Assembly: GCA_965200155.1 (NCBI GenBank)
Contig: CBDATR010000024.1
Span: forward strand, 1-64,000
Direction: 5' to 3'
Length of the DNA stretch: 64,000 nt
Source: Nitrosopumilaceae archaeon
GTDB taxonomy: Archaea; Thermoproteota; Nitrososphaeria; Nitrososphaerales; Nitrosopumilaceae
Shown: piece after piece, positions 4,448 to 60,997 of the stretch
Position numbering within the stretch: position 1 is the stretch's first letter
How the letters are laid out: the number at the start of each line of letters is the position of its first letter
Translations under genes and position numbers: made by a program
Notes under the pieces: model-generated
Seen by the model: the letters and a program-made list of their open reading frames with translations, nothing else
Told to the model about the DNA's origin: nothing
Databases searched by the model: none

Positions 4448-4582
4448 GTATGAGTTCACGTCTTCCGGAATCTTATGCACAAATCACATTGTATGAGTTC
4501 ACGTCTTCCGGAATCTTATGCACAAATCACATTAACTGTCGCGATCAGTTATGCGCAAATTTAGACACAGGTGAACTCATAC
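4448..4582 (+). mobile_element. MITE with tandem-duplicated 43-bp left end (4448-4490 partial plus 4491-4582 full)
   Basis: TSD AAACGGTT outside the whole unit; empty site seen in the paralogue near 55425-55450. Confidence 0.9.
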
Positions 4583-4720: not shown

Positions 4721-6433
4721 GTATGAGTTCACGTGTTTTGATCACATAATAAGATAGAATGCATCCCAGTTTTTTTAATTATAACTGCATTCTGACAGCA
4801 ACCTCGTTCATAACAGAAAGGCCCTGAGCCCTCCATGTCTGAACACATGATACGAATGTGGACATGCGGCGCATTGCCCTTTCGCCACCCTTTATCTGGC
4901 CACTAATCTTGCGGAATACCACTGCGTATCGCAAAGCCTGCTCCGCTGGATTGTTGGTGGGCTCTACACAGTCATATTCTAAGAATACGAACATGCATGG
5001 TATGGCCTTATTCAATCCTTTTACCTTCTTTTGTAGTTCAGTATCATCAACATCACAGTACTGATGCAGAATGGATTCTGCTCCTGTCTCAAATGAGTGT
5101 CGTAATTGCGCGGACGGCCCGCAGTGATTCAGGGATTCCCGTGCGCTCCGGAACAATCCTTTCAGGTCGTTGTCAAGTTTGATCCGGGCGTCCTGAGCAC
5201 CGGGATCAATATAGAATCCTGCATGTAATGCCTGGGTATCGCGCAATAAATGCGCCCAACACAACTGGTGCTTCCCACCGTCATCAAACCGGCGGTACAC
5301 AACGTACCTGTCTGTGACTATCGCCCCCTGGTAACCGTTCAGGTATTTGTTCACTACATTTGAACTCCTACTTTTGTCATATATGGACATCATCCACTCT
5401 TCGGCTCGCATCCCCCATACCCAGCCACGCCTACCCGCCAGTGATATACCAGTTTCGTCCACATGAATGCTGGGTGATTTTATTATATTCTCATGAATTG
5501 TTTCCATAAATGATTCACATGCATCGGCGGCCCTGGCAATTATGTTGTTTACTGCACCCACCGATATATTTAGGCCGAAGAGATCCCTCGAAATTACAGG
5601 TATGCGTTTTATTGGAATCTTTTCTGCGCGTAATGCGGTGATGGCACCACATAATTGAACCCCAAAACTACCACTCTTTGGGACGCCCGCTGCTGGGGCC
5701 AGTTGTTTTTTGCCGCACCCACACGCAGCCATTTCTATCACATGAAGGGTCTCCTCTATTTTGGCTGGTATTAATTCCGTTATGTGTCGTTGTTTCCAAC
5801 CAATTTTTGTCATTATATTGCCGCACTCACATATTGGTGTGTACTCAAAGGTGTGATGCACTACTCTGCCGGGGTTGTGGGAACGGGAAACCCCCTTGTG
5901 TCCCTTTTGAGCGCCAGCCTTTTTGGCTGATTTCGTACTGGCTTCTTTCTGTTGCTTATTATCTCCCTGTTTTCGCTTCTGCTCCTCCTGTTTTCGCTTC
6001 TTGTACTGGAGGGATTGAAAGGATGGTGGCGAGTGAGCATTCTCATAATATTTAAGTCGCGTTGTGAGTACCGCAATTTTCCTGTCTTTTTCTTCTAATT
6101 TCTCATTCAATTCACTTACATAATTCCTAATAATTTGGAAATCTTGTGTGAGATTTCGTATTTCTTTTGTGGTGTGTGACGTATGTGCTTCCAATACTCT
6201 CACACGTTCCTTGTAATGTGCAAGATCTTTCTCGGTAGACGCAAGGGTATCCTGAAGAAGTTTATTTTCCAGTTCCAATTCCTTATAGGACCGGCGTCTT
6301 CTCATTAGATTCTTATTGCAAATTTGGTATTTAAGTAAAATATTACCATACCAATCTATATCTTAGTGAATGATCAAAACACGTGAACTCATACCTATAT
6401 CTTAGTGAATGATCAAAACACGTGAACTCATAC
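4721..6433 (-). mobile_element. Intact single-ORF IS66-family element (ISBst12-like), probable autonomous partner of the MITE
   Basis: TIR GTATGAGTTCACGTGTTTTGATCA at both ends, 8-bp TSD GTAAATTA, 39-bp tandem duplication of the left end (6395-6433). Confidence 0.92.
4779..6305 (-). CDS. IS66 family DDE transposase (TnpC-like)
   Basis: Coiled coil, SPPS, GAQKGHKG, CxCG..CxCG zinc finger, IHVDETG, TDRYVVY, QLCWAHLLRD, PTNNPAEQALR. Confidence 0.92.
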   Translation of the reverse strand: MRRRRSYKELELENKLLQDTLASTEKDLAHYKERVRVLEAHTSHTTKEIRNLTQDFQIIRNYVSELNEKLEEKDRKIAVLTTRLKYYENAHSPPSFQSLQYKKRKQEEQKRKQGDNKQQKEASTKSAKKAGAQKGHKGVSRSHNPGRVVHHTFEYTPICECGNIMTKIGWKQRHITELIPAKIEETLHVIEMAACGCGKKQLAPAAGVPKSGSFGVQLCGAITALRAEKIPIKRIPVISRDLFGLNISVGAVNNIIARAADACESFMETIHENIIKSPSIHVDETGISLAGRRGWVWGMRAEEWMMSIYDKSRSSNVVNKYLNGYQGAIVTDRYVVYRRFDDGGKHQLCWAHLLRDTQALHAGFYIDPGAQDARIKLDNDLKGLFRSARESLNHCGPSAQLRHSFETGAESILHQYCDVDDTELQKKVKGLNKAIPCMFVFLEYDCVEPTNNPAEQALRYAVVFRKISGQIKGGERAMRRMSTFVSCVQTWRAQGLSVMNEVAVRMQL

Positions 6434-7383
6434 GTAAATTATGCAACCCGGATACTACGAGTAGATCTTCCCTGAATTCCTCACGACTGCCATCATATAC
6501 CTGACTTAATCTACGATATACCTTTAGCATTCGAATTACATGCTCGATTAATGTGCGCCTTTTTGATACATATTGGTTGTATTTCCTTTCAGTGTTAGTG
6601 AGTGATTCCCTACCCCTGTATGGAATTATGACCTTTGCGCCGGGTAGAAAGTCTTTCATTCCCTGGTATCCTGCATCTGCTATTACTGTTATTTTATCGG
6701 ATGGTGGCGTGGTTGATTCTTTTAGGGACTTGCCCCATTTGCCGCCAAGGGGAATATCATTCTTGAATATGCCATAATCGTGTCTTTTTCCCTCATATAC
6801 TCCACTGACGTGAATTATCAGTCTTGTTTGATGTTATCTGTACGTTATACGTGTGGGTTTTTTGTTTACCAGAGTACATTGCCTCCTGATTTTTTTCAGG
6901 ACGTTGTACGCGTACATGTGTCCCGTCAGTCTTTATCTCCCCTCCGGCTCGGCCTGGAACAATTTCCTTAAAGTCCGATGCTGACTTGATTTGTGATATT
7001 GCTTTTGCAACGGTATCGGCCGTTGGGAGTATCTTGATCAGTCCCTGCTTTGTAAACTGGATGTAACGGCATATGTTTGACTGGTTTATCTTGAGTATTG
7101 CAGCAAGAAGCTCCTGCTTTGTGTTGCAGCGCAGGCGTATCAGTGTAACTAAGAGTACATGCCTGACCGGAAATTTGTTCACATGGCCGCGATCATTTGT
7201 AAGTTCTAAGAATCGCCGTGCATCATCGCCTTCCAGGGACTCTACGTATTCTGTGAATCTGATTAGTATCCATTTGAACTCTTCCGGGGTGCATCCGGTC
7301 AGGGAATGAAGCTGATCCTTGCGTTCTATGATGTCATCAAGATTTGGAACGAGGGCATTCTTTGTGAGCTTCAAGTTTGCCAC
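6434..7383 (-). pseudogene. IS5/ISL2-type transposase, frameshifted near 6823 and interrupted by IS66
   Basis: SLTG, HTH region, TDGT...YSGK, ADAGYQG, RTLIEHVI; lacks 5 bp present in the paralogue at about 55950. Confidence 0.8.
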
Positions 7384-7612: not shown

Positions 7613-8492
7613 AATGGTACGGGAATCTCATGGAACTGCTTGGGTAACAATTCAGAACCACTGGGTATGTCCTTGGTGTATGTAAAAGGCCCGGTTTTGT
7701 AACAATGTCTCTTTGGATATTGTAACTTTTTTGGTGGCCAATTTCGAGTTTTTCCGATCATACGTACTCCTGATACTAATCCTTCGTATGAGTTCACCTG
7801 TGTCTAAATTTACGCACAACTGATCGCGACAGTTAATGTGATTTGTGCACAAGATTCCGGAAGACGTGAACTCATACAATCCTTCTTTGCTGACCGATTT
7901 TGACAGATATTTGGACATATATGCAGCCGCACCACCGTGAGTTTTCATTTCCTCGCAATGATATATGCCGAATCCATGTCTTTGCAGCAGGTTATACGTT
8001 GCTAATGCAGCAGGTGATAACGTTGATTTCCATTGACGGAGAGACATCTTATTTGCCTTCTGGCATGTAGCGAATGGGTGATCTCCAGCAATGAGCATGT
8101 GGATATGAAAGCGAGATGTACGTGAGCCATATTCGAAGACTGACCCAGGGCATGTTGGGAGCAGTAAGATAGTTTTTACGTAATTGACCGAATTGTTTGA
8201 TACCATATCGTGATATTGTTTCAGGATCTGATGATTGTATATGCTTAGGATCCAAGGTAAGGGTGACAAATGATACGGGTTGATCGATAGGGAGTAATTT
8301 TACGGTGCCTATATATGCAGAAAGGGATCTGACTCGTTTTTGTTGACATACATCACAGCGGTTATTAGATTTACAGGGCATGTGCATTTTGTAATATTTA
8401 CCATCGGATGAGTATAGTGTTCTCCATAATTTGGATTCACACATGGGAACTTGTTCTTGAATTCCAAAAATGTTTGTAATTTGACGGGTCAT
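7613..8492 (-). pseudogene. Rolling-circle replication initiator (HUH endonuclease Rep), frameshifted near 8141, MITE-interrupted, 3' truncated by the IS5 element
   Basis: PCxxxxxCxxC zinc motif, motif I FVTLTL, motif II RFHIHMLI, motif III AAAYMSKYLSK, split over three ORFs. Confidence 0.8.
7786..7877 (-). mobile_element. 92-bp MITE copy inside rep
   Basis: TSD AATCCTTC. Confidence 0.95.
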
Positions 8493-9855: not shown

Positions 9856-10091
9856 TATGGCCCCTCTATTGTCGCTTCATATGGCAATATTTTATCATAA
9901 TTAGCCAAATATGCAATTTTATTAGCGGCGCGCGCATATACGTATTGTATACAATTATCATCGTCATCTTTTGTTGATAAATTTTCAGCATATGATCTTA
10001 TTTTATACCATTTATCGATATTTCTGATTTTAACAATATCTCTTATTTGGGGAAATTGACCCTCTGTAATAATTAATTTGAGTAATGTCAT
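9855..10091 (-). CDS. Hypothetical protein of the integrated element
   Basis: AT-rich ORF whose stop overlaps the next start (TAATG). Confidence 0.5.
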   Translation of the reverse strand: MTLLKLIITEGQFPQIRDIVKIRNIDKWYKIRSYAENLSTKDDDDNCIQYVYARAANKIAYLANYDKILPYEATIEGP

Positions 10092-10560
10092 TTCATGTCC
10101 CCCTCACTCGGCAGCCATAATCGTAAATCCTTGGCAATATCCTGCAATTTCTTGTGCATCCGGGGATGATATACCATAACTATTTGCCAGCGCCACGAGC
10201 ATGGAATGGGTATCATATGTCGTGCAGCACAGACTAACTTGTTTCATTATACTACCTACTATTGACATATTAAAGACCATATCGGTTTATTTTCTGAAAA
10301 ATTCTATATACAAACTTGGACAGCTTAACGCGAATATTACAGCTATGTGATTCAAATTGACCCTGTGGGCATGGACTTATGCACAAAATAAACTAATGTG
10401 TAACATGAACTTATGCACATAGATTTCTGAGTTGAAATTTTTTTCCAGCGCGATCCATACATACACCTAGTATATTCCCCTCTTTACTGCTTATACCAAT
10501 TTGTAATTTGTGCTTATTATTACCTAGATCCTTCCCATTGAACCAATTTTGTTATACATC

Positions 10561-10800
10561 TTAGATAAAATGGCCATTCCTTGTCATGCGTGGTCTTGAT
10601 TCCTTTTTGGGCGGTTCTTTAACCTCCTTAGTTACCTGCACTTCTATTGACTCTATAAGAAACCTGAGATATTCGCTTATGGACATGTTACATATCTGGC
10701 GCATGTCATCCAGTCGCTGTCTTTGCCACTTAGTACATCTCAGTGCAATACACTCCTTATACTCATTTGACCGCCTGAACGGTAACTTCTGCCTGCCCAT
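10561..10800 (-). CDS. Ribbon-helix-helix (CopG/MobC-like) DNA-binding protein
   Basis: IALRCTKWQRQRLDDMRQICNMSISEYLRFLIE fits the beta-alpha-alpha pattern. Confidence 0.7.
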   Translation of the reverse strand: MGRQKLPFRRSNEYKECIALRCTKWQRQRLDDMRQICNMSISEYLRFLIESIEVQVTKEVKEPPKKESRPRMTRNGHFI

Positions 10801-11081
10801 ACTACATATCTGATATTATATGCTATATTAGTACTGCCTGCTCTTATGATATCCATATGTCATACGCCCCCGCCCCTGGGCTTACTATTGATCACATATC
10901 CGCCATACTCCTTATGGCGCCCAGAATGCCGAGACTCCTTATGCCGGTTACCTAGTGAGTTAAATTTTCAAGTGCCTTACTATAATACGGAACGCTTCAA
11001 AAGACTGATCATTCCAACTCATGTTAACACTATTCTCTATGTACCTACTTAACAGCGCCCCATATACGCTAGACAAATATC

Positions 11082-14000
11082 CTAGGGAATAGGCGCCTTG
11101 TAGTACTTGTCCAGGCCGGTTGGTTCTGTCTTGATATCATCCATCTTGAATTCAGTTGGGAGATTAGCTATGATCCTATCGGATTCTAGACCGACATGTA
11201 CTAGTCGTTCTAGCATGGCTCGGATCTGTTCTCCTGTAAAGACCCGGAATGGGTACCTATCTATCCCACTCTTTGCCTTCTTTGGTATGAAGGTTAACCA
11301 CCCTACAGGTGTGCGGCCATTCACTTTGTAATTGATTAATGGTATGTTATTGTATATCTTTTGGCCGTCTATTATGATGGTTGACGGATCCGGTTTGTCT
11401 TTGGGGCCCGGGGAACCGGTTCTATTTGGTTTCTTACCGAATCTAATCGTTCTTGGGTGATCAGGTATGGAGTGAAGCGGCTCACCCAAGTCATAACGTG
11501 GGCATGTCTCATAGTTCAGGTGTAAGTCAGCTAGTTCTCGGCCTGCTCTCATGATTCCATGGAAGTCAGGCGCCATGGGAATATTCGACAATCCTCTAAC
11601 AAGGAATGCTTGATACTTGGAACGATAACCACTATGATGTAGGATGCCATAGGTATAGTAGAATATGTCCTCTTTAGTTATGGAGTCATCATTATATCGT
11701 TTCTGGTATAGTTCCAGGGAATAGTCGGTGATGTTATCCTTTTGCTTCATCACCTCCGGTGACTGTGTGAACATGGGGAATACCTGCCCGTGATGCACCA
11801 CTTCCAGATCCGGTGCTATTCCCGTTATGAATACTGAGAATTCACCCTTGATCTTGTCCGGGACTATTATCGCCAGGTTCTTGATGGCTGACTGGCTGAC
11901 TGGCTGACTGGCTGACTGGCTGACTGGCTACCTACCACATGTCTATTCTTGTCCTTTTGTTTCTTGACTCTCATGGGAAAGCATTGGGATGCCTCGTGGA
12001 TGTGAAGGTCAGGCGTGATATCCGTGACAAACGTAGAGAACTCACCCTTTATTTTATCCGGCACCATAATAGAATGATTCTTGGAGTCGGGGTGTGGGTA
12101 GAATGAGGGGATATTAGAGGGTGTGGATACCATTACTTCATAGTCTGCATATAGATACTGTTTCAGGAATGGTCTATACAGTGCTGTCCTGATCTTTGTT
12201 TTATTGAACCTGGGTTTGCTTGGCGCCATCTTTTTTAGATCTCGCGTCATCTCTTTGGACCATGCAACATATTTTACATCTTTGTCAAAATCATCCAGAT
12301 CCTGCACAGCACAATGTTCTATGGTTCTTCTCATATTCTCTTCCAGGTCTTGGGGCGATGCGTTGTATACCCAATCATCTCTACGTGTTGTCAACCCCAT
12401 AGAATACATTACAAACATTACATCATTGGTCTTACCACGCTTTCCCTCTTTACTTCCCATTGAAGTCATGGAATCCCACTCATCACTGGATTCACCCCGC
12501 TGATCCAGCCAGTCGTGATAACGGTCTGGTGTTATAATCTGCCAGTCTTGTATTCCGGCGATGGAGCCGTATTCTTTTATCTTTTCTAGTTTCTTATCTC
12601 TGTCCAGATAATCACCAATGTCGTGGTAGTGGATGGTGCAAGATTGTTTGGCCGGGTTCTTGACTAGTATGGTTATAGCGGTGCCCACAGTTGAGCCACT
12701 CCCAAATATCTTGCCGCCCTCTCGTCTCCAATCCTGTTTACCCTTTACATCACCTCGTAAATTGAAACAGTAGACATCCGTGAACTCCATTCCAAGACAG
12801 GCGCGTATACCAGCTTCACTATTCCCAGTGATATATGCGGATGGTGTGATTAAACCGATAACCCCGCAATCACCAATTCTATCAGATGCCCAACGAATAG
12901 CCTTGATGTATGAGTTATTTGGTTTCAGTATGGCTCCCTTGAAGCCAACGTTACGCGCCTTACTCGTATAGGTGTTCTTTATGCGAGTCTCAAGTTTAGA
13001 GTGGGAATCATTCTTGTTATCATCACTAGCTGTCTCCTGCCCACTAGAGTATGGTGGATTACCTATAATGATATTTACACAATCCATGTTCTGCCGTTTC
13101 ACCCTAGTCATGGCTTCCTCCAGGGAATCATCTGTAATCTTGATCTGCTTCTTACGCTGTTCGGCATCCAGCCTGTATGAGGGGTGCTGTGTGAATGTAT
13201 CTGTGTATGATATCCCGCCAAACGGAACATACTCCCCGCTCTTTTTCTGATATGATGCCTCAATATTGGACATGGCAACATAGAATGCCGGCAACATTAT
13301 TTCATTCGCGTAAATATCATTCTGGTACTTGTCAGGTAGTGCATCATCACTGATCATTCCTCGCTCTATTAACTGGGCAAGGAATATCCCGGTACCGGTG
13401 AACGGGTCCAGCACCTTTACTGCTCTATCATTGAATGTCTTTCCAAACTCCGATTCTAGTACATGTCTAACTGATTCCAGTATGAAGTTAACGATTTCAA
13501 CTGGTGTGTGTACGATTCCATGTTTGTCCGCGGACTTTTTATCCGAGCCAATGAAGAATGCGTCATATATGGCGCGCAGGAAATCCTGCTTGGCATCCGG
13601 CTCCTTGAATAGTTCAATGTCTGCCTGTATACCAGTATAGAATGCCTCGAACTGTTCTAGTTGTCCCTGTATGTTTAATCGTTGCATGGTATTATCGAAT
13701 GCAGATGCCACCGGGTTAGCATTCTTGGGGAACATTACATTGAATACTCTGGACATTACAGCATGCTGTGATAATGCACGAATGGTCTGCTCATATGTCA
13801 ACGTGAATCCGACTATATGTTTCAGGTTCTCGTGTAATTGTTTAATGATGGGCGCAGTTTCCGGCTCAATTTTGATTCGCTGTTTCAGTTTGGTCTCTAT
13901 TATGACGGCTTGCTCCCCTAGTCGCTTGCCCATGTTGGCGTGGTAACTGGCATCGCCAAGACTCAGTATGACATTCTGTACATCCTTTAACAACTTGTCA

Positions 14001-16078
14001 CTGAGTCCTGCCCCCAGTGTACGAATAATCCAGTCATTCAGTCTTGGTGGTATTTCTGACGGATCCGGTGGCTCATGTTTACCACTCTTTCCTGACTTGG
14101 ACAGTACATACTTGTTCAGTAGCTGTTGCAGTTTATCATCATGTGCTGTGATCGCACGTAATATCTTGCTTATCTGCTCGTACCGTGTGTTCCTTTTCAA
14201 CACATGATGTGGATCATCACCCTTCAAGACTGGGATGGGGACTATAACGTAACCTGTTTTCTTTCCCTCTGATTTTCGCATTACTCTACCAATACTTTGT
14301 ATTATGTCGATGGGTGAGTTCTTGGGCTCCATGAATACAACGGCATCCAAGGCTGGAACGTCCACGCCCTCCTGCAAGCACCTGGCATTACTGAGTATAC
14401 GAATCTCCTTTGGATCACTATCGCTATTTCGTAACCAGTCTATCCGCGCTCCCCTGTCCAGTGAGTTGGTAGAGCCATCAACATGCCTCGTTACAGTCTT
14501 GTAACCGTCCAGATCGGGATCAGTCTTTAGTAGTCTCTCGCTTAAATTATCAAAGCTTAATGTTTCCTTTGTGATTTTATCAAGCTTGAGTTGTTTCTTT
14601 GCCTTGTCCATGTTCCTGCCATGATTGGAGAACAACTTTGACGCTTTTATGGTGTTGAAGAATACCATCACCCTCTGTAAGGGCCGGAATTCCTTAGTAT
14701 CACCATCATATGTGATCGCCTTACAGATACTGTTCACTTTTGACATGTAGTCTATGTCCATATCCTCGTAATCCTTGAGATCATCACCATGTTCCCTTGC
14801 AGCCTTGATGATTTCACCATACGCATCAGTCTCATCAACCTCTGGTAGTACTATTTTGAAAGGTGTGAGTAGTCCAATATCGACCGCTTTTGAGAATGGT
14901 AAGTCATATAGTACATCGCCATATTTCTCATTATCCATGGAGTATACTTCCAGTCCTTGATCCGTGGCATCCTTTCTACCCTTTTCTGTATAGACACGGG
15001 GGGTGGCAGTCATGTAGAGCCGCCTCTTGGCTGGAACCTCGCTATTCTTGTGTGCAGTCAAGTAATAGGATTCCTTGATTTTCTCGGCGCCAGTGGTGCG
15101 GTGAGCCTCATCGAATAGAATTAGATCAAATATACCATTTCTGTCCCGTATGGCTTTTCCCACACGCTCCACGGAATTATACGTGGAAAATACGACACGC
15201 ATACCTTTTCGGTTCTCCATAGAATGTAGTTGCTCCTTTATCGTTTCCACATCTGTGGATGGTTGTATGGGACACTCAGTGATGGAACCTGCCTCATCTG
15301 TACCGGACGACTTGTCAGAGCACACTGCCATGTACTGATGTTCTATGGAACGGTTATCTGCCCACTCTCTCATCGCCTGCGGTATCAGTGATATTGACGG
15401 TACCAAGTATAGAACAAGACCGTCTTTCCCTAGAATGGTTTCTGCGATATGGAGTGATGTTATGGTCTTGCCAGTTCCACATGCCATGATGAGCTTCCCG
15501 CGATCTGCACCATGTAGTCCGGTGACTACTCTTTGAACTGCTTCCTTCTGGTGATCTTGTAATGTCTTTGGTTTCACTGCTCTCTTCATTCCACTCCAGT
15601 CAATCCCACTCTGGCGGAGATCAGCCTTCATGAGTATTGGGTAACCGGATTCTTCGAACGGTTTTACAATATTCCTGCTTACGTGCGCCCCTGTGAATAC
15701 AAGAATGAGTCTGTCCATCTTTTTGCTCTCCTTTACGACAAACATGTTTGAGATCTGATTCTCGTGGATACTGGAATCATCATTCCAGCACTTGCACTGA
15801 ATGCCAACTAACTTGTCATCCTTGTCTCTGGCAACCAGATCAATTCCAATGTCCGGTTCACGATACCAGTCATGGAATAGTTTTACTTCCTTGAACTCAT
15901 TCTTGTATATGCTGTCATTCTTGAAGTAGTGTAGCATTAGTTTCTCAAATCGGACACCGCGTTCAGTCTTGCTAACTTTACTGCCCTTACGGCTGATATC
16001 CTTTTCATCATCGGTCTCCGCACGTAGCCTTGCTAATGCTTGATCAAAAGTTTCCACTATTCCTGGAATGATTCCCAC
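11082..16078 (-). CDS. Type ISP (LlaBIII/LlaGI-like) single-polypeptide restriction-modification enzyme, currently frameshifted at an 8-bp repeat tract
   Basis: Mrr-like nuclease DIGIDLV..IQCK; SF2 motifs MACGTGKT, DEAH, TAT, QSIGRVMRK; N6 methyltransferase LDPFTGTG and GNPPY; TRD YRPF; the C-terminus (DIFYYTYGILH..GRELADLHLNYE) is in another frame at 11082-11884. Confidence 0.9.
11885..11929. repeat. Simple sequence repeat (TGGCTGAC)5 plus TGGCT, i.e. (AGCCAGTC)n on the coding strand
   Basis: Read directly; encodes SQSASQPVSQSASQP. Confidence 0.95.
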
Positions 16079-16153: not shown

Positions 16154-16272
16154 GTATGAGTTCACGTCTTGGAACCGGTTCCAATCTTGTGCACAAAAGA
16201 ACCGGTTACTCTTTAACTGTCGCGATCAGTTATAGAATGACCCGTTCCATTTAGACACAGGTGAACTCATAC
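16154..16272 (+). mobile_element. MITE copy (119 bp) carrying three palindromic replacement scars
   Basis: Matches the consensus except at 16171-16182, 16198-16212 and 16234-16248; no TSD. Confidence 0.9.
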
Positions 16273-16357: not shown

Positions 16358-16449
16358 GTATGAGTTCACGTCTTCCGGAATCTTATGCATAAATCACATT
16401 AACTGTCGCGATCAGTTGTGCGTAAATTTAGACACAGGTGAACTCATAC
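16358..16449 (+). mobile_element. 92-bp MITE copy
   Basis: Consensus match; no TSD; followed by an orphan IS5-type end at about 16455-16519. Confidence 0.9.
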
Positions 16450-16576: not shown

Positions 16577-18085
16577 TTATCCCAAAAAAGCATCCATGCC
16601 CGTCTGCACAGGATGGTTTTTACTATCCTCCAATACTTGGTTTATACGCTCTCCCATTCTGCCTGCGGCCCTTACCTTTCTTTTACTTACCCAGTAGTAT
16701 GTTTCATCTATGGTATTTTTTGCCATAAGGACGATAAGCTTTCCCTCATTTTTACGACCAGTGCGGCCACGGCGTTGTATGTAGCGTATGGAGCTAGGTA
16801 CGTTATCGTAGAATATTACGTGATTTACCTCTGCTATGTCAAGTCCCTCTTCTCCTACTCTAGTTGCTATGAGCACCCGGTACTCTCCAGAACGAAATTT
16901 TTGTACAGTCTCAATCTGGCGTTTCTGTTTGAGACCAGTCTCACCGGATTTTCCAATCAATACGGCCGACGATATGCCTGATGCCTTTAGTTTGTCATTT
17001 ATCACTTCTACTGAGTCCCTGTAGCTGGTGAATATGAGAATCTTGCCCGGTATATCGGATAATATCTCCAATAACTTGGGTATTTTTGAGTGCTCCATGC
17101 CCCTTGCCTGTGCCTCCTGTGCCGCACGTATGGTTCTGGAAAAGCGTGGATCATCATCAAACAATGCCTTGACTCCGGGGCCTCCTTTCTTCCGGGTTCG
17201 CTCACAGAATCTGAGAAATGCAGTAATGCCATGCGCCTCTAGCATGTTTAGTGCGTGATGTGTTCGTATGGCGGCAAAAAGTGCTGGTGACAAATGACGA
17301 TACTTGCTAAGCACAATGGGACGTATTCTCAAAAGTGCCGAAAGTGATACTGATCCCAGATCTCTAAAACCTTGACTCTTGAGTATGTCATACCTGTCTG
17401 CTAGCACCTTCTTCAGACTTTTTTGCATTTGTATCATCTCCGGGGGAAGATCCACTTTTACCCACTGTGTATTGGTATCTTGCACGTATGGTACCACATC
17501 CGGACTCTGATCCGTGCGCTCAACAACCCTGCTTATACGAAGCCGTGTAAGTATCTCAGTTGCCTTCTGCATCTCGCTGGGCAGTGTGGCTGTCATCCCA
17601 AGCATTCTGGCACTACTCCCTGCAAACCAGTCTGCTATGGTAGCATACGCATAGTCTCCGACAGTCCGATGCACCTCGTCAAACACTACCAATGCAAACT
17701 GTGCTGGTCGTACTATGCCTCGATGAATGTCGTTGCGAGCTATCTCTGGAGTGGCGCATATTATGGAACTCATCCATCGTTTCTTTCGATTACTGGCAGT
17801 GTCTTCCCCTGTTACTAGGGATATGTCTTGTATGGTCATGCTATTCCGCAAGAACTCGTAGTGTTGGTTAGCCAGTACTCTTGTAGGCGCCAAAAAGAGT
17901 ACTGCTCCAGTCCCTCGTGCCATATACTCTGCTATAACCAATAAGGCAATTGCAGTCTTGCCCAGACCCGTTGGCAATACGATTACACAGTTCTCTTGCA
18001 CGGAATCCTCTGCCATGCTAATCTGATATTCTCGTGCCTCCACAGTATCCTTGACTACATACTTTTTTTCCACATAATTCATCAT
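16577..18085 (-). CDS. Hef/FANCM(Mph1)-like DEAD/DEAH helicase without nuclease domain
   Basis: REYQ, LPTGLGKT, DEVH, MTAT, GEEGLDI, QRRGRTGR. Confidence 0.9.
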   Translation of the reverse strand: MMNYVEKKYVVKDTVEAREYQISMAEDSVQENCVIVLPTGLGKTAIALLVIAEYMARGTGAVLFLAPTRVLANQHYEFLRNSMTIQDISLVTGEDTASNRKKRWMSSIICATPEIARNDIHRGIVRPAQFALVVFDEVHRTVGDYAYATIADWFAGSSARMLGMTATLPSEMQKATEILTRLRISRVVERTDQSPDVVPYVQDTNTQWVKVDLPPEMIQMQKSLKKVLADRYDILKSQGFRDLGSVSLSALLRIRPIVLSKYRHLSPALFAAIRTHHALNMLEAHGITAFLRFCERTRKKGGPGVKALFDDDPRFSRTIRAAQEAQARGMEHSKIPKLLEILSDIPGKILIFTSYRDSVEVINDKLKASGISSAVLIGKSGETGLKQKRQIETVQKFRSGEYRVLIATRVGEEGLDIAEVNHVIFYDNVPSSIRYIQRRGRTGRKNEGKLIVLMAKNTIDETYYWVSKRKVRAAGRMGERINQVLEDSKNHPVQTGMDAFLG

Positions 18086-24171: not shown

Positions 24172-24263
24172 GTATGAGTTCACGTCTTCCGGAATCTTGT
24201 GCACAAATCACATTAACTGTCGCGATCAGTTGTGCGTAAATTTAGACACAGGTGAACTCATAC
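24172..24263 (+). mobile_element. 92-bp MITE copy
   Basis: TSD AAAACAAG; sits just inside an orphan GTAACCGTTTAGGTCG end at 24118. Confidence 0.95.
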
Positions 24264-24852: not shown

Positions 24853-26561
24853 GTAATCGTTTAGGTCGTCCTTGGCAAAGAGAAATGTATTTCACCAGAT
24901 TGTTCTTGGCGTAATAGACTAACTTGCCCCAAGTATTGACAGGCGCATATCAGTCGTGTTGAGTCCACGCTTTCTACACGTCATCATGCAGGTCAGGATG
25001 TTCTCGACTACCTGCATACCCTTGTTCGAACCCCAAGACATGTGGTATCTTGCGGTGTATGACAAAGCGGAGCAGCATGCGCTCAGACTCGTTATTAGTG
25101 GGGGCCATACCAGGGTAGCGCAGGAATGTAAACAGATTTGGAGATGCGCCTTCCAGCTTATCGCCGAATTTTACGCCCAGCTTTTGCCACTGGGTGGCAA
25201 TGGAGAGTACGCGCATCTGAAGCGAATCTAGAATATCCGGAGCCATCTCTTCAGGATTCATGTCCCGGGCCTCGGCGTGTATTTCCTGAAGCATGTTATG
25301 CAAGGTTTCCGGTGGACCGGGCCCGGATGCATCTTTTGATTCCCTTAATATGCGTGCCCAGCACCTCTGTATTGTCAAATATGTTATATCCGGCATATCT
25401 GTCACACGTGATTGGCTTGTCCAAGATATTTGGATAACTATTTTTGATTACTGTTGATGAGCGCGATTGTTCCAGTGTATGTGCCACGCTGTCATTTCCG
25501 CTACATACCCACGCGTATGCAGTCTTGCCGTTCAGTGAGAGGGGGGTCTCATCCATCAGTATTGGATTTGGATAAATCGTCCCGGATTCCTTCCACTTCT
25601 GCCATTTTTTTCAGATACGGCTTCCAGGGCGTGCTGTATTGTTGCCTTGCATGATTGCACTCTATACATTTGCATGCTATCGGCGATACCCTGTAGTGTT
25701 GAGTCATTGTCATATGAGTTGATCATGATGGTTAGTAAGTTGGGTCCAAACTGCGTGCCTGGGTATCACTCCGGGCTCATGTGCCATATCCGTAATGGTA
25801 TGGCATTTCCCGGCACTCCTCTGTTATGTGTGCGGTAACCTTCGCTTTCGGAATGGCGGGTATGCCTGTTGTTGTGACATTGCCGGTCTTTTCGAGATTC
25901 GTAGAGCCGCATTTTGAGCATTTGTCAGGTGTCTTGCGCACTATTTTGTCCGGCTTTCTGTTGGGGGATTGGCCCTTGTGCCCATTCTTACGGCCGCGCT
26001 GGATTGGGGGTTTTCGCTGCATTTACCTTTGTGCGGCTCTTTTAGTCCTCTGCGGGATGGAGTTCTGGGATGGTGGGGTATGCGGGTTCTCATAATATTT
26101 TACTTGATTTCAATGAGCCTGCATGTCAATTACTGTCTCCAGATTCCTGATCCATGCAGTCTGTATATGGTTGAACGTCTGGTACTCGCCATTGATCCTA
26201 CTACTTGTATGCACCCATGAGATTTGTGTACTTGTCAGTGTAAGAGTTCGCCATCCGGGAGCTTTACAACAAATTAGTATTTATGCTTGCGGTCGAACCG
26301 TTCCTTTGTGCACGCTAAACGTGTTAGTTCCTTGTACTGCTCTATGGCGATTGCCTCCAGCTCCCTGATCCGTGCATCCAGTACCCGGCTGATCGTAGCA
26401 CGCTCCTCATTACTCTTGGTAAGTCTATTGATCTCATCCATGAGTCAGGCATTCCTGTCACGTAACATCTTGACTTCCGGGTCTTCCATCTGGCGTGTAT
26501 TGACGTAACCAGGATATATGGTTGGCGTAAAGCTGACCCTTCACACGACCTAAACGGTTAC
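24853..26561 (-). mobile_element. Second IS66 family element, pseudogenised
   Basis: TIRs GTAATCGTTTAGGTCG and CGACCTAAACGGTTAC; fragments YYENPHTPPS, GRKNGHKG, CSKCG, DETP, TCDRYAGY, PTNNESERMLL. Confidence 0.85.
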
Positions 26562-27818: not shown

Positions 27819-29867
27819 ATGAGACTACGCAAATTTCGTGTTAGGGCTTTTCGTTGTATTCACGACTCTGGGGAAATATCCGTAGCAGATCTTGCCGCCT
27901 TTGTGGGAAAAAATGAGAGCGGAAAGACCACAATACTTCAGGCCCTCCTATTACTTAACAGAGAAGAATCCGTCTCGGATCTGGATCTCTGTGATGAAAT
28001 GTCCGACGAACTGAAATCCGAGATTACATTGGTGGAGGGCCAGTTCCAGCTTACACCCGCGGAGACCGCCATGATAAAGGAAAGGTTCCCCCAAGTCCCG
28101 GAAATCAAGACCATGAGACTGTTTCGTACAAACAAAGTTCATGACGTTCAGTACGATTTTGGCGACATAGTCATAAGTGAGGAGCCACAGCAGGATGCTG
28201 TATCTTGGAATGGATTGTCGCAACAGGTACAACTCTTTCTTGATACCATCCCTAACCATATACGCGAGAAGATGGATGCCGGTTTCTTTGAGGGTCGTGC
28301 TCCTGCCAGCAAAGCTGACTTTGATGCTGGTATGAAACACTTCAACGAGACTGTGCGCAGAATTGCCATACATGAGGAAGAGGTGGTGGGCGAGTGGTTA
28401 CTAATATACAAGGATCCTAGAAACCAGTACGAGAAACTAACCCAAGGTGTAAGTGAGAGGGATAGGCTGGTTGAGTATATTGGACGGGATCTGCATCCGC
28501 GCTTTGTTTATTTCTCTGACTACAAAAAAATCTACGGTAACATAAACCTCAATGAATTTATGCGAGAGCAGTCGGGTCCGCGGACTGACTCGGTAGAATA
28601 TGTAGAAGAGTTCGACAAGGCTGAGACTGTACGTAACCTGTTCTATTTGGCAGAGCTGGATCTTCATGCTCTAAGAGCCAGTAATGACAGTCCATCCACG
28701 CTGATAAAACTGCTTAATACGGCCAGCAACCGTCTAACAAAGCGTCTTAATCCAACATGGAAGGGGGATCCTATCCGTGTTGATCTAAGATACAACCCCG
28801 GCAATATAATGAGCTTGGTAATATCTGACGTGCATCGGGATGGCACCATAACCAATATGGGTTTGCTGAGCCGCCGTGCAGAGGGATTCAAATGGACATT
28901 CTCGTTTATAGTGAACTTTGCCGCAGAGACGCAGCGTGCAGAACTTAAGGAGGCCATACTACTTTTGGACGAGCCAGCACGAAATCTCCATCCTACCCAA
29001 CAAATGGGTATAGCTGATCTGTTGCGGGATTTGGCTGGATCAAATCAAGTACTGTATGCCACACATTCCCCGTTTATGATATTTGACTACAACCCAGGCA
29101 ATTTGTTGGCGGTGGAGTTGGATCGACGCCTACATTTGAGTAGAATATTCTCTGATTATTGGAATGCTGATGACAGTACTCTTACTCCCATAATGTATGG
29201 ACTGTCTAGGGGACTGGTTCAGTCAATGACAGATAGGTGGATTGGAGTCAATTCTAGGCCTATAATTATAGTAGAGACCATGTCCGATGCCATGTATCTT
29301 AACGCCTTTGACAAATTTCTGGAAGATCCAAACATATCAATGAATCCGCTTAACGTGATTCCCAGCTACTCAAAAGACGCAGTTCTACCACTGGCCACAT
29401 TTTACAAGAATCACGACTACAAGACCTTGGTATTGTTAGATGACAGCGCCGAATCCCATCATATAGCATCTCGCCTTACCCGCAATGGATTCTCCCCCAA
29501 TCAGGTAATATTCTATGAGGTTAGTGGCAAGAAACTAAAGACAATCGAAGACTATATGGATCCTGCCGATTACATGTATGCTGTAAATCAGACCTATGAG
29601 GTGAAGTTGCGCGCCGAGGGCTATACACCACTCTCACCGGAATTGGTTGGCGATGGTGGAATTGTGGGCTCACTACAGGGAATTTGGAAGGATCACCATG
29701 ACCGGGGTTGGGGCAAGTTTGATCCCATGGAGATTACAAGATATGTGTGCAACAAGATAGCCACCGGTAGTACTAATTTTCTGGGCGAGAATACCCGCGA
29801 CAACTTTAGAATGTTATACCGTACGATCGCGGAGCGCATACGACTGCACCACGAACACCAAGACTAG
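27819..29867 (+). CDS. OLD-family-like ABC ATPase with TOPRIM-like C-terminus
   Basis: GKNESGKT, LLLDEP..LHP..Q, ATHSPF, IIVE..SD, LLDD. Confidence 0.8.
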   Translation: MRLRKFRVRAFRCIHDSGEISVADLAAFVGKNESGKTTILQALLLLNREESVSDLDLCDEMSDELKSEITLVEGQFQLTPAETAMIKERFPQVPEIKTMRLFRTNKVHDVQYDFGDIVISEEPQQDAVSWNGLSQQVQLFLDTIPNHIREKMDAGFFEGRAPASKADFDAGMKHFNETVRRIAIHEEEVVGEWLLIYKDPRNQYEKLTQGVSERDRLVEYIGRDLHPRFVYFSDYKKIYGNINLNEFMREQSGPRTDSVEYVEEFDKAETVRNLFYLAELDLHALRASNDSPSTLIKLLNTASNRLTKRLNPTWKGDPIRVDLRYNPGNIMSLVISDVHRDGTITNMGLLSRRAEGFKWTFSFIVNFAAETQRAELKEAILLLDEPARNLHPTQQMGIADLLRDLAGSNQVLYATHSPFMIFDYNPGNLLAVELDRRLHLSRIFSDYWNADDSTLTPIMYGLSRGLVQSMTDRWIGVNSRPIIIVETMSDAMYLNAFDKFLEDPNISMNPLNVIPSYSKDAVLPLATFYKNHDYKTLVLLDDSAESHHIASRLTRNGFSPNQVIFYEVSGKKLKTIEDYMDPADYMYAVNQTYEVKLRAEGYTPLSPELVGDGGIVGSLQGIWKDHHDRGWGKFDPMEITRYVCNKIATGSTNFLGENTRDNFRMLYRTIAERIRLHHEHQD

Positions 29868-44215: not shown

Positions 44216-45505
44216 GTATGAGTTCACGTGTTTTGATCATTCACTAAGATATAGGTATGAGTTCACGTGTTTTGATCATTCACTAAGATATAGATTGGTA
44301 TGGCAATATTTTACTTAAATACCAAATTTGCAATAAGAATCTAATGAGAAGACGCCGGTCCTATAAGGAATTGGAACTGGAAAATAAACTTCTTCAGGAT
44401 ACCCTTGCGTCTACCGAGAAAGATCTTGCACATTACAAGGAACGTGTGAGAGTATTGGAAGCATATGTGTCCCGCACCACAAAAGAAATACGAAATCTCA
44501 CACAAGATTTCCAAATTATTAGGAATTATGTAAATGAATTGAATGAGAAATTAGAAGAAAAACAGGGGAAAATTGCGGTACTCACAACGCGACTTAAATA
44601 TTATGAGAATGCTCACTCGCCACCATCCCTTCAATCCCTCCAGTACAAGAAGCGAAAACAGGGAGATAATAAGCAACAGAAAGAAGCCAGTACTAAATCA
44701 GCCAAAAAGGCTGGCGCTCAAAAGGGACACAAGGGGGTTTCCCGTTCCCACAACCCCGGCAGAGTAGTGCATCACACCTTTGAGTACACACCAATATGTG
44801 AGTGCGGCAATATGATGACAAAAATTGGTTGGAAACAACGACACATAACGGAATTAATACCAGCCAAAATAGAGGAGACCCTTCATGTGATAGAAATGGC
44901 TGCGTGTGGGTGCGGCAAAAAACAACTGGCCCCAGCAGCGGGCGTCCCAAAGAGTGGTAGTTTTGGGGTTCAATTATGCGGTGCCATCACTGCATTGCGT
45001 GCGGAAAAGATTCCAATAAAACGCATACCTGTAATTTCGAAGGATCTCTTCGGCCTGAATATATCTGTGGGTGCGGTAAACAACATAATTGCCAGTATGA
45101 GTTCACCTGTGTCTAAATTTACGCATAACTGATCGCGACAGTTAATGTGATTTGTACATAAGATTCTGGAAGACGTGAACTCATACTACTAAACTGCAAA
45201 AGAAGGTAAAAGGATTGAATAAGGCCATACCAGGCATGTTCGTATTCCTAGAATATGACAGTGTGGAGCCCACCAACAATCCAGCGGAGCAGTGGAACCG
45301 GTTCTGATACGCAGTGGTATTCCGCAAGATTAGTGGCCAGATAAAGGGTGGTGAAAGGGCCATGCGCCGCATGTCCATATGTGTTCAGACATGGAGGGCT
45401 CAGGGCCTTTCTGTAATGAACGAGGTTGCTGCCAGAATGTAATTATAATTAAAAAACTAGGATGTATTCTATCTTATTATATGATCAAAACACGTGAACT
45501 CATAT
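44216..45505 (+). mobile_element. IS66 copy 2, with a 490-bp internal deletion at a MITE
   Basis: Same TIRs and duplicated 39-bp left end as 4721-6433; TSD GATATTTT; transposase from 44344 truncated. Confidence 0.92.
45095..45186 (-). mobile_element. 92-bp MITE at a deletion junction
   Basis: No TSD; flanks correspond to about 5534 and 5043 of the intact copy. Confidence 0.92.
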
Positions 45506-53642: not shown

Positions 53643-53734
53643 GTATGAGTTCACGTCTTCCGGAATATTGTGCACAAATCACATTAACTGTCGCGATCAG
53701 TTATGCGTAAATTTAGACACAGGTGAACTCATAC
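53643..53734 (+). mobile_element. 92-bp MITE copy
   Basis: TSD CATAATGC. Confidence 0.95.
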
Positions 53735-55247: not shown

Positions 55248-56272
55248 ATACCTTATGCGCATGATTGACAATAACAGCCCATGTTGCTTCAAACTGGGGT
55301 GTATTTTATGGCACACAATCAGTCAAGCATGAACAATGTGAATGGCACCTGCCAGCACTAACGTATGCCGTGATTGCAAATGTCATGTAGTGGGGTGACC
55401 GGATCTTGATGACGTATATCATGAGTGAGCTAAATGGTTACCACAAAACCCATTAATTTAGTGGATTTTCTGATGAGTAATATTCGAATTATAATAACAC
55501 GGAAATTATGGACAGATATTTTTCAAAAATTTCTTGTATCTGGTATGCTTGTGCATAATGTGTAAATTATGCAACCCGGATACTACGAGTAGATCTTCCC
55601 GGAATTCCTCACGACTACCATCATATACCTGACTTAATCTACGATATACCTTTAGCATTCGAATTACATTCTCGATTAATATGCGCCTTTTTGATACATA
55701 TTGGCTGTATTTCCTTTCAGTTTTAGTGAGTGATTCCCTACCCCTGTATGGAATTATGACCTTTGCGCCGGGTAGGAAGTCTTTCATCCCCTGGTATCCT
55801 GCATCTGCTATTACTGTTATCTTATCGGATGGTGGCGTGGTTGATTCTTTTAGGGACTTGCCCCATTTGCCGCCAAGGGGAATATCATTCTTGAATATGC
55901 CATAATCGTGTCTTTTTCCCTCATATACTCCACTTACGTGAATTATCAGTCTTTTCTTGTTTGATGTTATCTGTACGTTATACGTGTGGGTTTTTTGTTT
56001 ACCAGAGTACATGTATGAGTTCACCTGTGTCTAAATTTACGCATAACTGATCGCGACAGTTAATGTGATTTGTGCATAAGATTCCAGAAGACGTGAACTC
56101 ATACGAGTACATTGCCTCCTGATTTTTTTCAGGACGTTGTACGCGTACATGTGTCCCGTCAGTCTTTATCTCCCCTCCGGCTCGACCGGGAACAATTTCC
56201 TTAAAGTCGGGTGTTGACTTGATTTGTGATATTGCTTTTGCAACGGTATCGGCCGTTGGAAGTATCTTGATC
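55248..56272 (-). mobile_element. Second copy of the IS5/ISL2-type element, 5' truncated at a MITE
   Basis: Near-identical to 4251-4720 plus 6434-7040; transposase C-terminus at 55506-56012. Confidence 0.85.
56013..56104 (-). mobile_element. 92-bp MITE copy
   Basis: TSD GAGTACAT. Confidence 0.95.
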
Positions 56273-56546: not shown

Positions 56547-56933
56547 ATGAGTACTGAAACAATGAGCATATTAGCTATTGTAAAAGAATTAGCACAAGAG
56601 TTAGAACTGCTTAAGCAAATAGTGAATAAAAATGAGGCCGAAAAATCCACGCCAAAGCGACGTGGAAGACCGCCAAAATCCCAGACTGCTGCCGCCGCTG
56701 ATACTACTGTACCAAAGCGACGTGGAAGACCGCCAAAATCCCAGACTGCTGCCGCCGCTGATACTACTGTACCAAAGCGACGTGGAAGACCGCCAAAATC
56801 CCAGACTGCTGCCGCCGCTGATACTACTGTACCAAAGCGACGTGGAAGACCGCCAAAATCCCAGACTGCTGCCGCCGCTGATACTACTGTACCAAAGCGA
56901 CGTGGAAGACCGCCAAAATCCCAGACTGCGTGA
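56547..56933 (+). CDS. HMGA-like multi-AT-hook DNA-binding protein with N-terminal coiled coil
   Basis: Five PKRRGRPPK AT-hooks; start could be 56547 or 56562. Confidence 0.8.
   Translation: MSTETMSILAIVKELAQELELLKQIVNKNEAEKSTPKRRGRPPKSQTAAAADTTVPKRRGRPPKSQTAAAADTTVPKRRGRPPKSQTAAAADTTVPKRRGRPPKSQTAAAADTTVPKRRGRPPKSQTA
56652..56929 (+). repeat. Perfect 60-bp tandem repeat, about 4.6 copies
   Basis: Unit CCAAAGCGACGTGGAAGACCGCCAAAATCCCAGACTGCTGCCGCCGCTGATACTACTGTA. Confidence 0.97.
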
Positions 56934-58056: not shown

Positions 58057-58148
58057 GTATGAGTTCACCTGTGTCTAAATTTACGCATAACTGATCGCGA
58101 CAGTTAATGTGATTTGTGCATAAGATTCCGGAAGACGTGAACTCATAC
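58057..58148 (-). mobile_element. 92-bp MITE copy
   Basis: TSD TCAGATCC. Confidence 0.95.
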
Positions 58149-60643: not shown

Positions 60644-60997
60644 TCACTTTTGTGAACTGCCAAGCTTCTCTGATAGTGGTAATTTCTTTCCGTCTCGCTC
60701 CACTCTTATGCTAGTCTGCATCCTGACATATATGCCCATGAGACGCAGCAGATAAAGTAACTGCCCACCGTCCACACTGCGTAGTTCCTTAGATGATACC
60801 ATGGCGGCTATTCTGGGAATAGCCTTGGCTGTCCTGTCGGGAAACTGTCTTTCCGCGTTCTCTAGAACTTCCAATCCTCGGTATCCGAGGGCTGACACCA
60901 GTATGTCCCGGGGGGTTTTGGATTCAGGCTTTGCGGCGCGTTGTTGGAGGGCGGCCAATTTTTTGGCCATTATGCGGTCCAAATCATCGTCGCTCAT
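60644..60997 (-). CDS. PDCD5-like double-stranded DNA-binding domain protein
   Basis: DDDLDRIMAKKLAALQ N-terminus; ATGA-coupled to rtcB. Confidence 0.65.
   Translation of the reverse strand: MSDDDLDRIMAKKLAALQQRAAKPESKTPRDILVSALGYRGLEVLENAERQFPDRTAKAIPRIAAMVSSKELRSVDGGQLLYLLRLMGIYVRMQTSIRVERDGKKLPLSEKLGSSQK

Follow-up and report, generated by a model that had tools for sequence, protein, structure and literature searches.

A repeat tract between two recognition modules in archaeal Type ISP restriction-modification genes: a probable switch of specificity

Host-adapted bacteria are known to switch DNA methyltransferases by means of repeats. The Type III mod methyltransferases of phasevarions are turned ON and OFF by a tract in the 5' part of the gene, and their control of a regulon has been demonstrated. 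Repeats have also been described in Type I specificity (hsdS) genes, including NgoAV and the hsdS gene of Mannheimia haemolytica with three target-recognition domains (TRDs) (PMC7383803), and HpyUM032XIII S1/S2 (PMC4450513). A frameshift-mediated switch of specificity has been reported for the Type IIG enzymes HpyAXVI (HP1353-HP1354) and Hpy99XIV (JHP1272) of H. pylori, in which a poly-C tract adds a second four-strand element that reads positions -1/-2 from the methylated adenine; this element was shown to displace the resident one, and the motif changes (PMC3936762). The Type ISP genes of the same source have frameshifts that are not due to repeats. In the Type ISP enzyme LlaGI, the base at +3 is read by residue H1368 of Loop VI; conservation within the domain is highest in its last core helices and the guide subdomain, and the re-engineering of Type ISP specificity is named as an unaccomplished challenge (PMC4872093).

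A search of the openly licensed literature turned up no Type ISP enzyme and no archaeon with repeat-driven phase variation. A 2026 review (PMC13076061) makes no mention of Type ISP, and the passages of it that were covered contain no archaeal repeat switch. A Type ISP gene with such a tract is described here. The interpretation favoured below, at better than even chances, is that slipped-strand changes switch the specificity of a split Type ISP enzyme. Gain or loss of repeat units would then probably alter the DNA sequence that is marked and cut, and not only turn the enzyme ON or OFF.

The Type ISP gene and its surroundings

The window is the whole stretch of DNA that was analysed (64,000 nucleotides). 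A gene on its minus strand encodes an Mrr-like nuclease, an SF2 helicase, a gamma-class m6A methyltransferase and an ISP TRD, in the order known for Type ISP enzymes (Pfam Mrr_cat_2, ResIII/DEAD, Helicase_C and Type_ISP_C). The protein aligns with LlaBIII and LlaGI along its full length, with E values of 8e-102 for the N-terminal part against LlaBIII and about 1e-50 for the TRD side against LlaGI/LlaBIII. The motifs DIGIDLVA/IQCK, MACGTGKT, DEAH, QSIGRVMRK, LDPFTGTG and GNPPY, which we take to be the catalytic motifs of the nuclease, helicase and methyltransferase, are intact. The assignment to Type ISP and to an archaeon, made earlier by a sequence-only reading of this DNA, holds: ribosomal protein S11, PolB and triose-phosphate isomerase of the window match best with archaeal models, and the named close relatives of the enzyme (Cenarchaeum sp., Candidatus Nitrosoabyssus and Nitrosopumilaceae) point to an ammonia-oxidising archaeon. 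A Hef-like helicase of 502 aa, comprising the helicase part only, is encoded directly upstream of the ISP gene at 16577-18085 (minus strand).

Type ISP enzymes, which cleave DNA in an ATP-dependent manner and methylate one strand, have all their domains in a single polypeptide, and in this last respect the window gene departs from them. Its large open reading frame (Table 1) terminates in SQSASQPVSQSASQPSRTWR followed by a stop codon. Positions 11929-11890 of the minus strand are exactly five copies of AGCCAGTC, followed by AGCCA to 11885 (5.6 copies, 100% matches), and at five units the tract breaks the chain. In a scan of the window for periods 1-9, this tract was the sole perfect repeat besides three A/T runs of 8-9 nt. 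Like the tracts of phase-variable methyltransferases, it is a perfect repeat within the reading frame with a unit length not divisible by three. When the gene was recomputed with 0-11 units, the frame was open to 11082 as one chain at n = 1, 4, 7 and 10 (1654, 1662, 1670 and 1678 aa, respectively), and all other unit numbers led to an early stop. The earlier reading had placed the last ~265 codons out of frame at five units (266 by the present count), with a stop at 11867 and a full frame after the loss of one unit or the gain of two; all of this was reproduced.

The likeness to the AGCC/AGTC tracts of Haemophilus drawn by the same reading is coincidental, as the unit is an 8-mer and the units of relatives have 1, 2, 7, 8, 10, 11 or 13 bases; a tract of alternating Haemophilus tetramers was rejected.

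Table 1. Features of the Type ISP gene in the window
Feature	Positions	Strand	Description
Large open reading frame	11867..16078	-	1403 aa, from the Mrr-like nuclease through SF2 helicase, coupler and N6-adenine methyltransferase to the target-recognition domain as far as module A
Module A	11972..12079	-	36 aa, beta-hairpin and Loop VI; His at the LlaGI H1368 position
Basic spacer from module A to tract	11930..11971	-	KKQKDKNRHVVG flank common to 8 proteins
Simple sequence repeat (AGCCAGTC)5 + AGCCA	11885..11929	-	Putative frame selector; from repeat scan
Module B	11772..11879	-	36 aa, second hairpin and Loop VI; Glu at the H1368-equivalent position; in frame at n = 1, 4, 7
Stops of large open reading frame	11869-11867	-	TAA, with a second stop, TAG, next
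TGA closing the third reading frame of module B	11842..11844	-	Window allele; frame open in L002, L023 and third-frame relatives
Junction of module B and C-terminal piece	11733..11757	-	GGAGGTGA motif at 11757-11750, presumably ribosome-binding-like; start Met of relatives altered; B in frame into piece
Remaining in-frame ATGs near the junction	11774 and 11750	-	
C-terminal piece	11082..11750	-	~222 aa, last TRD core helices and guide subdomain; separate polypeptide in many relatives

The tract sits between two diverged copies of a 36-residue module, A and B, which are identical at 61 of 108 nucleotides, with the mismatches mostly at third positions. Both copies align to LlaBIII 1334-1371, a constrained hairpin with Loop VI, and the doubled module corresponds to the LlaGI hairpin 1347-1358 and Loop VI 1365-1374; the offset between the PDB chain and the LlaGI numbering is assumed from residue names. 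The Pfam profile Type_ISP_C matches with positions 2-158 upstream of the tract and 111-310 downstream, such that ~45 profile positions (111-158) are doubled, with one copy on each side. By its His at the position equivalent to H1368, module A would resemble LlaGI (G at +3), and module B has Glu there. The C-terminal piece that follows B (the C-piece) consists of the final core helices and the guide, where the domain is most conserved, and a chain lacking it is therefore unlikely to work alone.

Several other features of the window were recorded. There are 20 full copies of a 92-bp miniature inverted-repeat element (e.g., 4491-4582, 7786-7877, 16358-16449, 24172-24263, 53643-53734 and 58057-58148), which has terminal repeats of 12 bp (GTATGAGTTCAC) and, in most copies, target duplications of ~8 bp. 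It is probably IS66-derived, since its ends also flank an IS66 transposase at 4779-6305. A 119-bp variant with three mutually similar insertions of 8-10 bases (GAACCGGTT-like) lies at 16154-16272, 76 bases upstream of the ISP gene. Transposase fragments (IS66, DDE_Tnp_4) are present at 6793-7383, 24974-25405, 44344-45132 and 55506-56024; long copies of them, inverted or direct, occur at other places in the window. A perfect 60-bp tandem repeat (56652-56929, 4.6 copies) lies in overlapping open reading frames, for one of which a Pfam search gave no match, and a 682-aa AAA ATPase at 27819-29867 (plus strand) matches the defence profiles AriA/OLD/GajA. The earlier suggestion that an OFF state of the restriction gene might have favoured this load of mobile elements was dropped: nothing links the two, and the enrichment of transposases as well as restriction systems reported for sponge-associated Thaumarchaeota (PMC7848895) calls for no OFF state.

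Layout and tract length among relatives

The best 120 of 7961 homologous proteins were sorted by script and then corrected by hand; the hand assignment counted 8 proteins scored X and 2 unanchored proteins as single-module and P0025 as fused, and left P0099 and P0106 unclassified. An A-repeat-B layout was present in 53 of these 120 proteins, a single module running into the C-piece in 65, and 2 were unclassified. In the family design, the large chain extends as far as module A and is followed by a repeat with a unit length not divisible by three, by module B, and by a C-piece with its own start overlapping the stop of B; this was read on DNA for the loci L002 and L023 and on proteins for the rest. 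Frame X ends just past the tract and would give A only, with the piece made separately. Frame Y includes B and ends at the overlap, and frame Z reads through B out of frame as an open linker fused to the piece, which would give A only in one chain.

All three frames are represented among the 53 A-repeat-B proteins, which comprise 13 in frame X (with module B deduced from the tail), 21 in frame Y ending at a stop (4-8 residues after B in 16), 3 with A, B and piece fused, 13 fused through a shifted B (10 in frame Z, 2 in the other frame and 1 with three modules) and 3 other forms with three modules or two tracts. None of these 53 showed an early stop in frame Z. Seven of them have 857-1086 aa and no helicase domains listed; some are of DrdV-like length and others are possibly partial. 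The repeat unit accounts for the linker in 45 of the 53, versus 2 of the 65 single-module controls (60 versus 30 residues scanned). Sixteen different units of 1, 2, 7, 8, 10, 11 or 13 bases were found among the 53, and 20 when 16 further hand-picked proteins were included; none is a multiple of three. Most of these units were deduced from the protein, and the 11-mer of L023 was confirmed on DNA. A representative search added more examples, one of them with a 5-base unit in a protein of just 33% identity. Stand-alone C-pieces (173 found) begin at the same Met in 89 of the 120 listed, and this start Met is retained in 10 of 10 frame-Z proteins. Apparent three-module arrays, two tracts per gene, or both were noted in P0060, P0063, P0080, P0122, P0199, P0249, P0300 and P0312. 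In P0029, P0037, P0039, P0040, P0057, P0058 and P0103 the C-piece is joined via the other shifted frame of B, and the conserved start Met is not evident.

A genome scan keyed on helicase motifs listed at least 80 loci, among which two strong module matches with a repeat were present only in L002 and L023, both from Nitrosopumilus and both in chromosome-level assemblies. L002 contains GA x14 and is in frame Y; L023 contains the 11-mer x88 and is in frame X. In both, the start codon of the C-piece overlaps the stop of B, with a GGTGA motif just before it, frame X leads to an immediate double stop, and frame Z stays open across B and into the piece. All three DNA copies (window, L002 and L023) have the double stop of frame X. 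Taken gene by gene, the openness of frame Z does not reach significance (P 0.18 and 0.26). A clear GGTGA-like motif also precedes an operon-internal gene of the window starting at 60997, and most of 21 upstream regions of the window lack one (by eye). In the same scan, L008 has one module, the L001 locus breaks off ahead of the TRD, and 27 further loci had no module match. L008 (near 10074), L046 and L072 (both near the module) have ISP genes with a single module that are interrupted by a nonsense codon or by a repeat-free frameshift. A plasmid search returned only ordinary distant ISP genes, all below 60% identity (33-36% in the 15 listed).

The length of the tract differs between alleles. 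The left flank of the window tract (KKQKDKNRHVVG) is common to 8 proteins. Five of them (P0002, P0003, P0004, P0387 and P0395) have five units, P0386 has one unit with B in frame and then a stop (frame Y), P0257 has about four units plus an extra 7-mer (frame Z), and P0005 has six units of a one-base variant and is fused via frame Z. P0386 is probably encoded by a second copy in the assembly that holds the cluster of the window's C-piece, and P0257 and P0395 look error-prone in sequence. The 88-unit tract of L023, a perfect stretch of 968 bp inside the ISP gene (10006-10973), compares with 2-3 units in P0021, which is 99-100% identical over 1335 aa; the gap may reflect slippage, or short-read or assembly collapse in P0021. 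The comparison of tract lengths in homologues, put forward in the sequence-only reading as a check, gave 1, about 4, 5 and 6 units behind one flank, subject to these assembly caveats; such a difference between alleles is expected of a phase-variable tract. Five units in 5 of 8 proteins suggest that the window tract may slip rarely. The proposal of a slipped-strand locus is upheld by the many different frameshifting repeats that relatives carry at the same spot and by the copies with the same flank that differ in length.

The proposed switch and its alternatives

Under the specificity switch proposed here, module B in frame Y would replace or compete with A and thereby change the base read at +3, for methylation and restriction alike, as the extra domain of HpyAXVI does. 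In relatives the C-piece carries its own start and is joined to the large chain in a single frame, so that the enzyme need not be OFF at any tract length. The best 120 of 7961 homologues include 24 in-frame cases, and in all 24 the residue equivalent to H1368 is not the same in A and B; the 4 proteins with His in B are all among the 7 without His in A (hypergeometric P 0.0033, for relatives that are not independent).

A plain ON/OFF switch, as in the earlier reading, would have the full-length chain active, the truncated chains dead and the second module a passenger; it is considered unlikely. Among the best 120 of 7961 homologues, B is in frame and followed by a stop in 21 of 24 cases, yet the mean identity of B is 76% among 17 frame-Y proteins. 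For A, the value is 46% in 17 proteins that make up nearly the same set, and for B read shifted (frame Z) it is 45% among 10 proteins. Mismatches between the three DNA copies show a third-position excess in B's own frame (14/22, 15/25 and 11/23). Module B is, by these comparisons, conserved in its own reading frame and always unlike A at the base-reading residue, neither of which would be expected of a passenger, and the conserved start of the piece would be of no use in such a design.

Structure models bear on both readings. A complex of P0013 (residues 900-1361, frame Y) with P0203 scored 0.89, with 0.00 for the best control. Of 157 solved pairs, 116 came up to the mark that this score passes, and of 215 mismatched pairs 2 did; the runs agree in at least 90% of contacts and the partner has a pLDDT of at least 87. 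The split chains are thus predicted to form one domain, a result that may owe something to likeness to LlaGI/DrdV. The confident interface includes module A (1252-1291) and none of module B. The model docked A even with B present, which fits plain ON/OFF switching and lends displacement by B no structural support, although complex models cannot weigh competition between A and B on DNA. In the fold predicted for the natural Z-state protein P0005, only a 75-residue linker (659-733) within the TRD is disordered, and the domain around it is ordered.

The ON/OFF claim retains a place for the window allele itself. The sequence of this allele shows a derived state, with B joined in frame to the piece, frame Z closed by a stop and the separate start changed. 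P0124 has a C-piece 99-100% identical to that of the window which begins at the usual Met, and the three other forms with A and B fused have no repeat and look locked. At n = 1, 4 or 7 the window gene would give a single chain with both A and B. At five units it would give the A chain, which would be OFF unless translation of the piece restarts at ATG 11774 or 11750. As the missing piece comprises the conserved core helices and guide, five units may well be OFF; an OFF state at present is plausible, and the ON state would carry an added recognition module. What does not stand is ON/OFF switching as first stated, for the tract parts two base-reading modules and the C-piece of the family is translatable in every frame.

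Another explanation, which we rate as quite improbable, is that B is a silent spare cassette for recombination between the similar starts of A and B, with the repeat a spacer or by-product and slippage minor. Modules do appear shuffled within identical flanks (P0386 and P0395 carry A and B loops other than those of the window), the identity of close alleles falls in patches within the TRD, and P0032 and P0119 resemble, by eye, single-module products that retain a B-type tail or the piece's Met. Recombination can, however, act alongside slippage, and 16 unrelated units at one position, all frameshifting, together with the frame-X double stops in three DNA copies and 13 Z-phase proteins reading through B, argue that the choice of frame is selected. 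Decay or mis-assembly, with the window copy a pseudogene and its tract an accident or assembly error, is very improbable: the junction departs from the family design and the region 76-370 bases upstream of the start contains two miniature elements of IS66 type, but all catalytic motifs are intact over 1403 codons, the five-unit tail recurs in proteins 92% and 78% identical overall, and the layout is found in 53 of the best 120 of 7961 homologues.

The specificity switch can be stated more broadly, at even chances, for a lineage of ammonia-oxidising archaea. Their Type ISP and DrdV-like enzymes would carry a three-frame dial in which no repeat length silences the enzyme: the gene is split behind a dual-coded 36-residue module, the C-piece is fused, coupled or separate, and the tract length picks the module (up to three, with two tracts) that reads +3. 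If the switch is real, these archaea would hedge against viruses by changing one base of the restriction target while defence is kept up, and dozens of apparent frameshifted pseudogenes would be working split enzymes. It would be an archaeal case of repeat-driven phase variation and would provide a natural library of swappable single-base specificity modules. The paired A and B loops offer material for testing how Type ISP enzymes recognise the base at +3.

Comparison with known systems

The archaeal genes share with the Type III mod phasevarions of Haemophilus and Neisseria a slipped-strand repeat inside a methyltransferase gene (PMC7383803). Those systems differ in being ON/OFF switches with a 5' tract and demonstrated control of a regulon. 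The Type I systems NgoAV, M. haemolytica HsdS and HpyUM032XIII resemble the proposed switch in that a repeat between recognition units changes specificity and the enzyme stays active. In Type I hsdS genes, however, whole TRDs or half-subunits are gained or lost, whereas in the archaeal ISP genes one sub-domain loop module would be swapped within a single TRD.

LlaGI and LlaBIII (PMC4872093) and DrdV (PDB 7lo5) have the same domain order, motifs and TRD fold, the module corresponding to the hairpin and Loop VI. They differ in being single polypeptides with one Loop VI and no repeat.

HpyAXVI and Hpy99XIV offer a further parallel: there too a repeat tract brings a second copy of a base-reading element. 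Two features of the HpyAXVI type, a tract that brings a second copy of the -1/-2 reading element and copies that differ at base-contacting residues, have their counterparts here. HpyAXVI is a Type IIG enzyme with the extra domain at the very C-terminus and a poly-C tract, whereas the archaeal genes encode helicase-bearing ISP enzymes and proteins of DrdV length with the copy inside the TRD core. Unlike in HpyAXVI, the rest of the domain is separate or alternatively fused, the third frame is open, at least 16 units occur, three modules with two tracts are found in some genes, and those hosts that are named are archaea. With another enzyme type, an internal module, a split domain and many units, the archaeal system would work like HpyAXVI but is not a member of that type.
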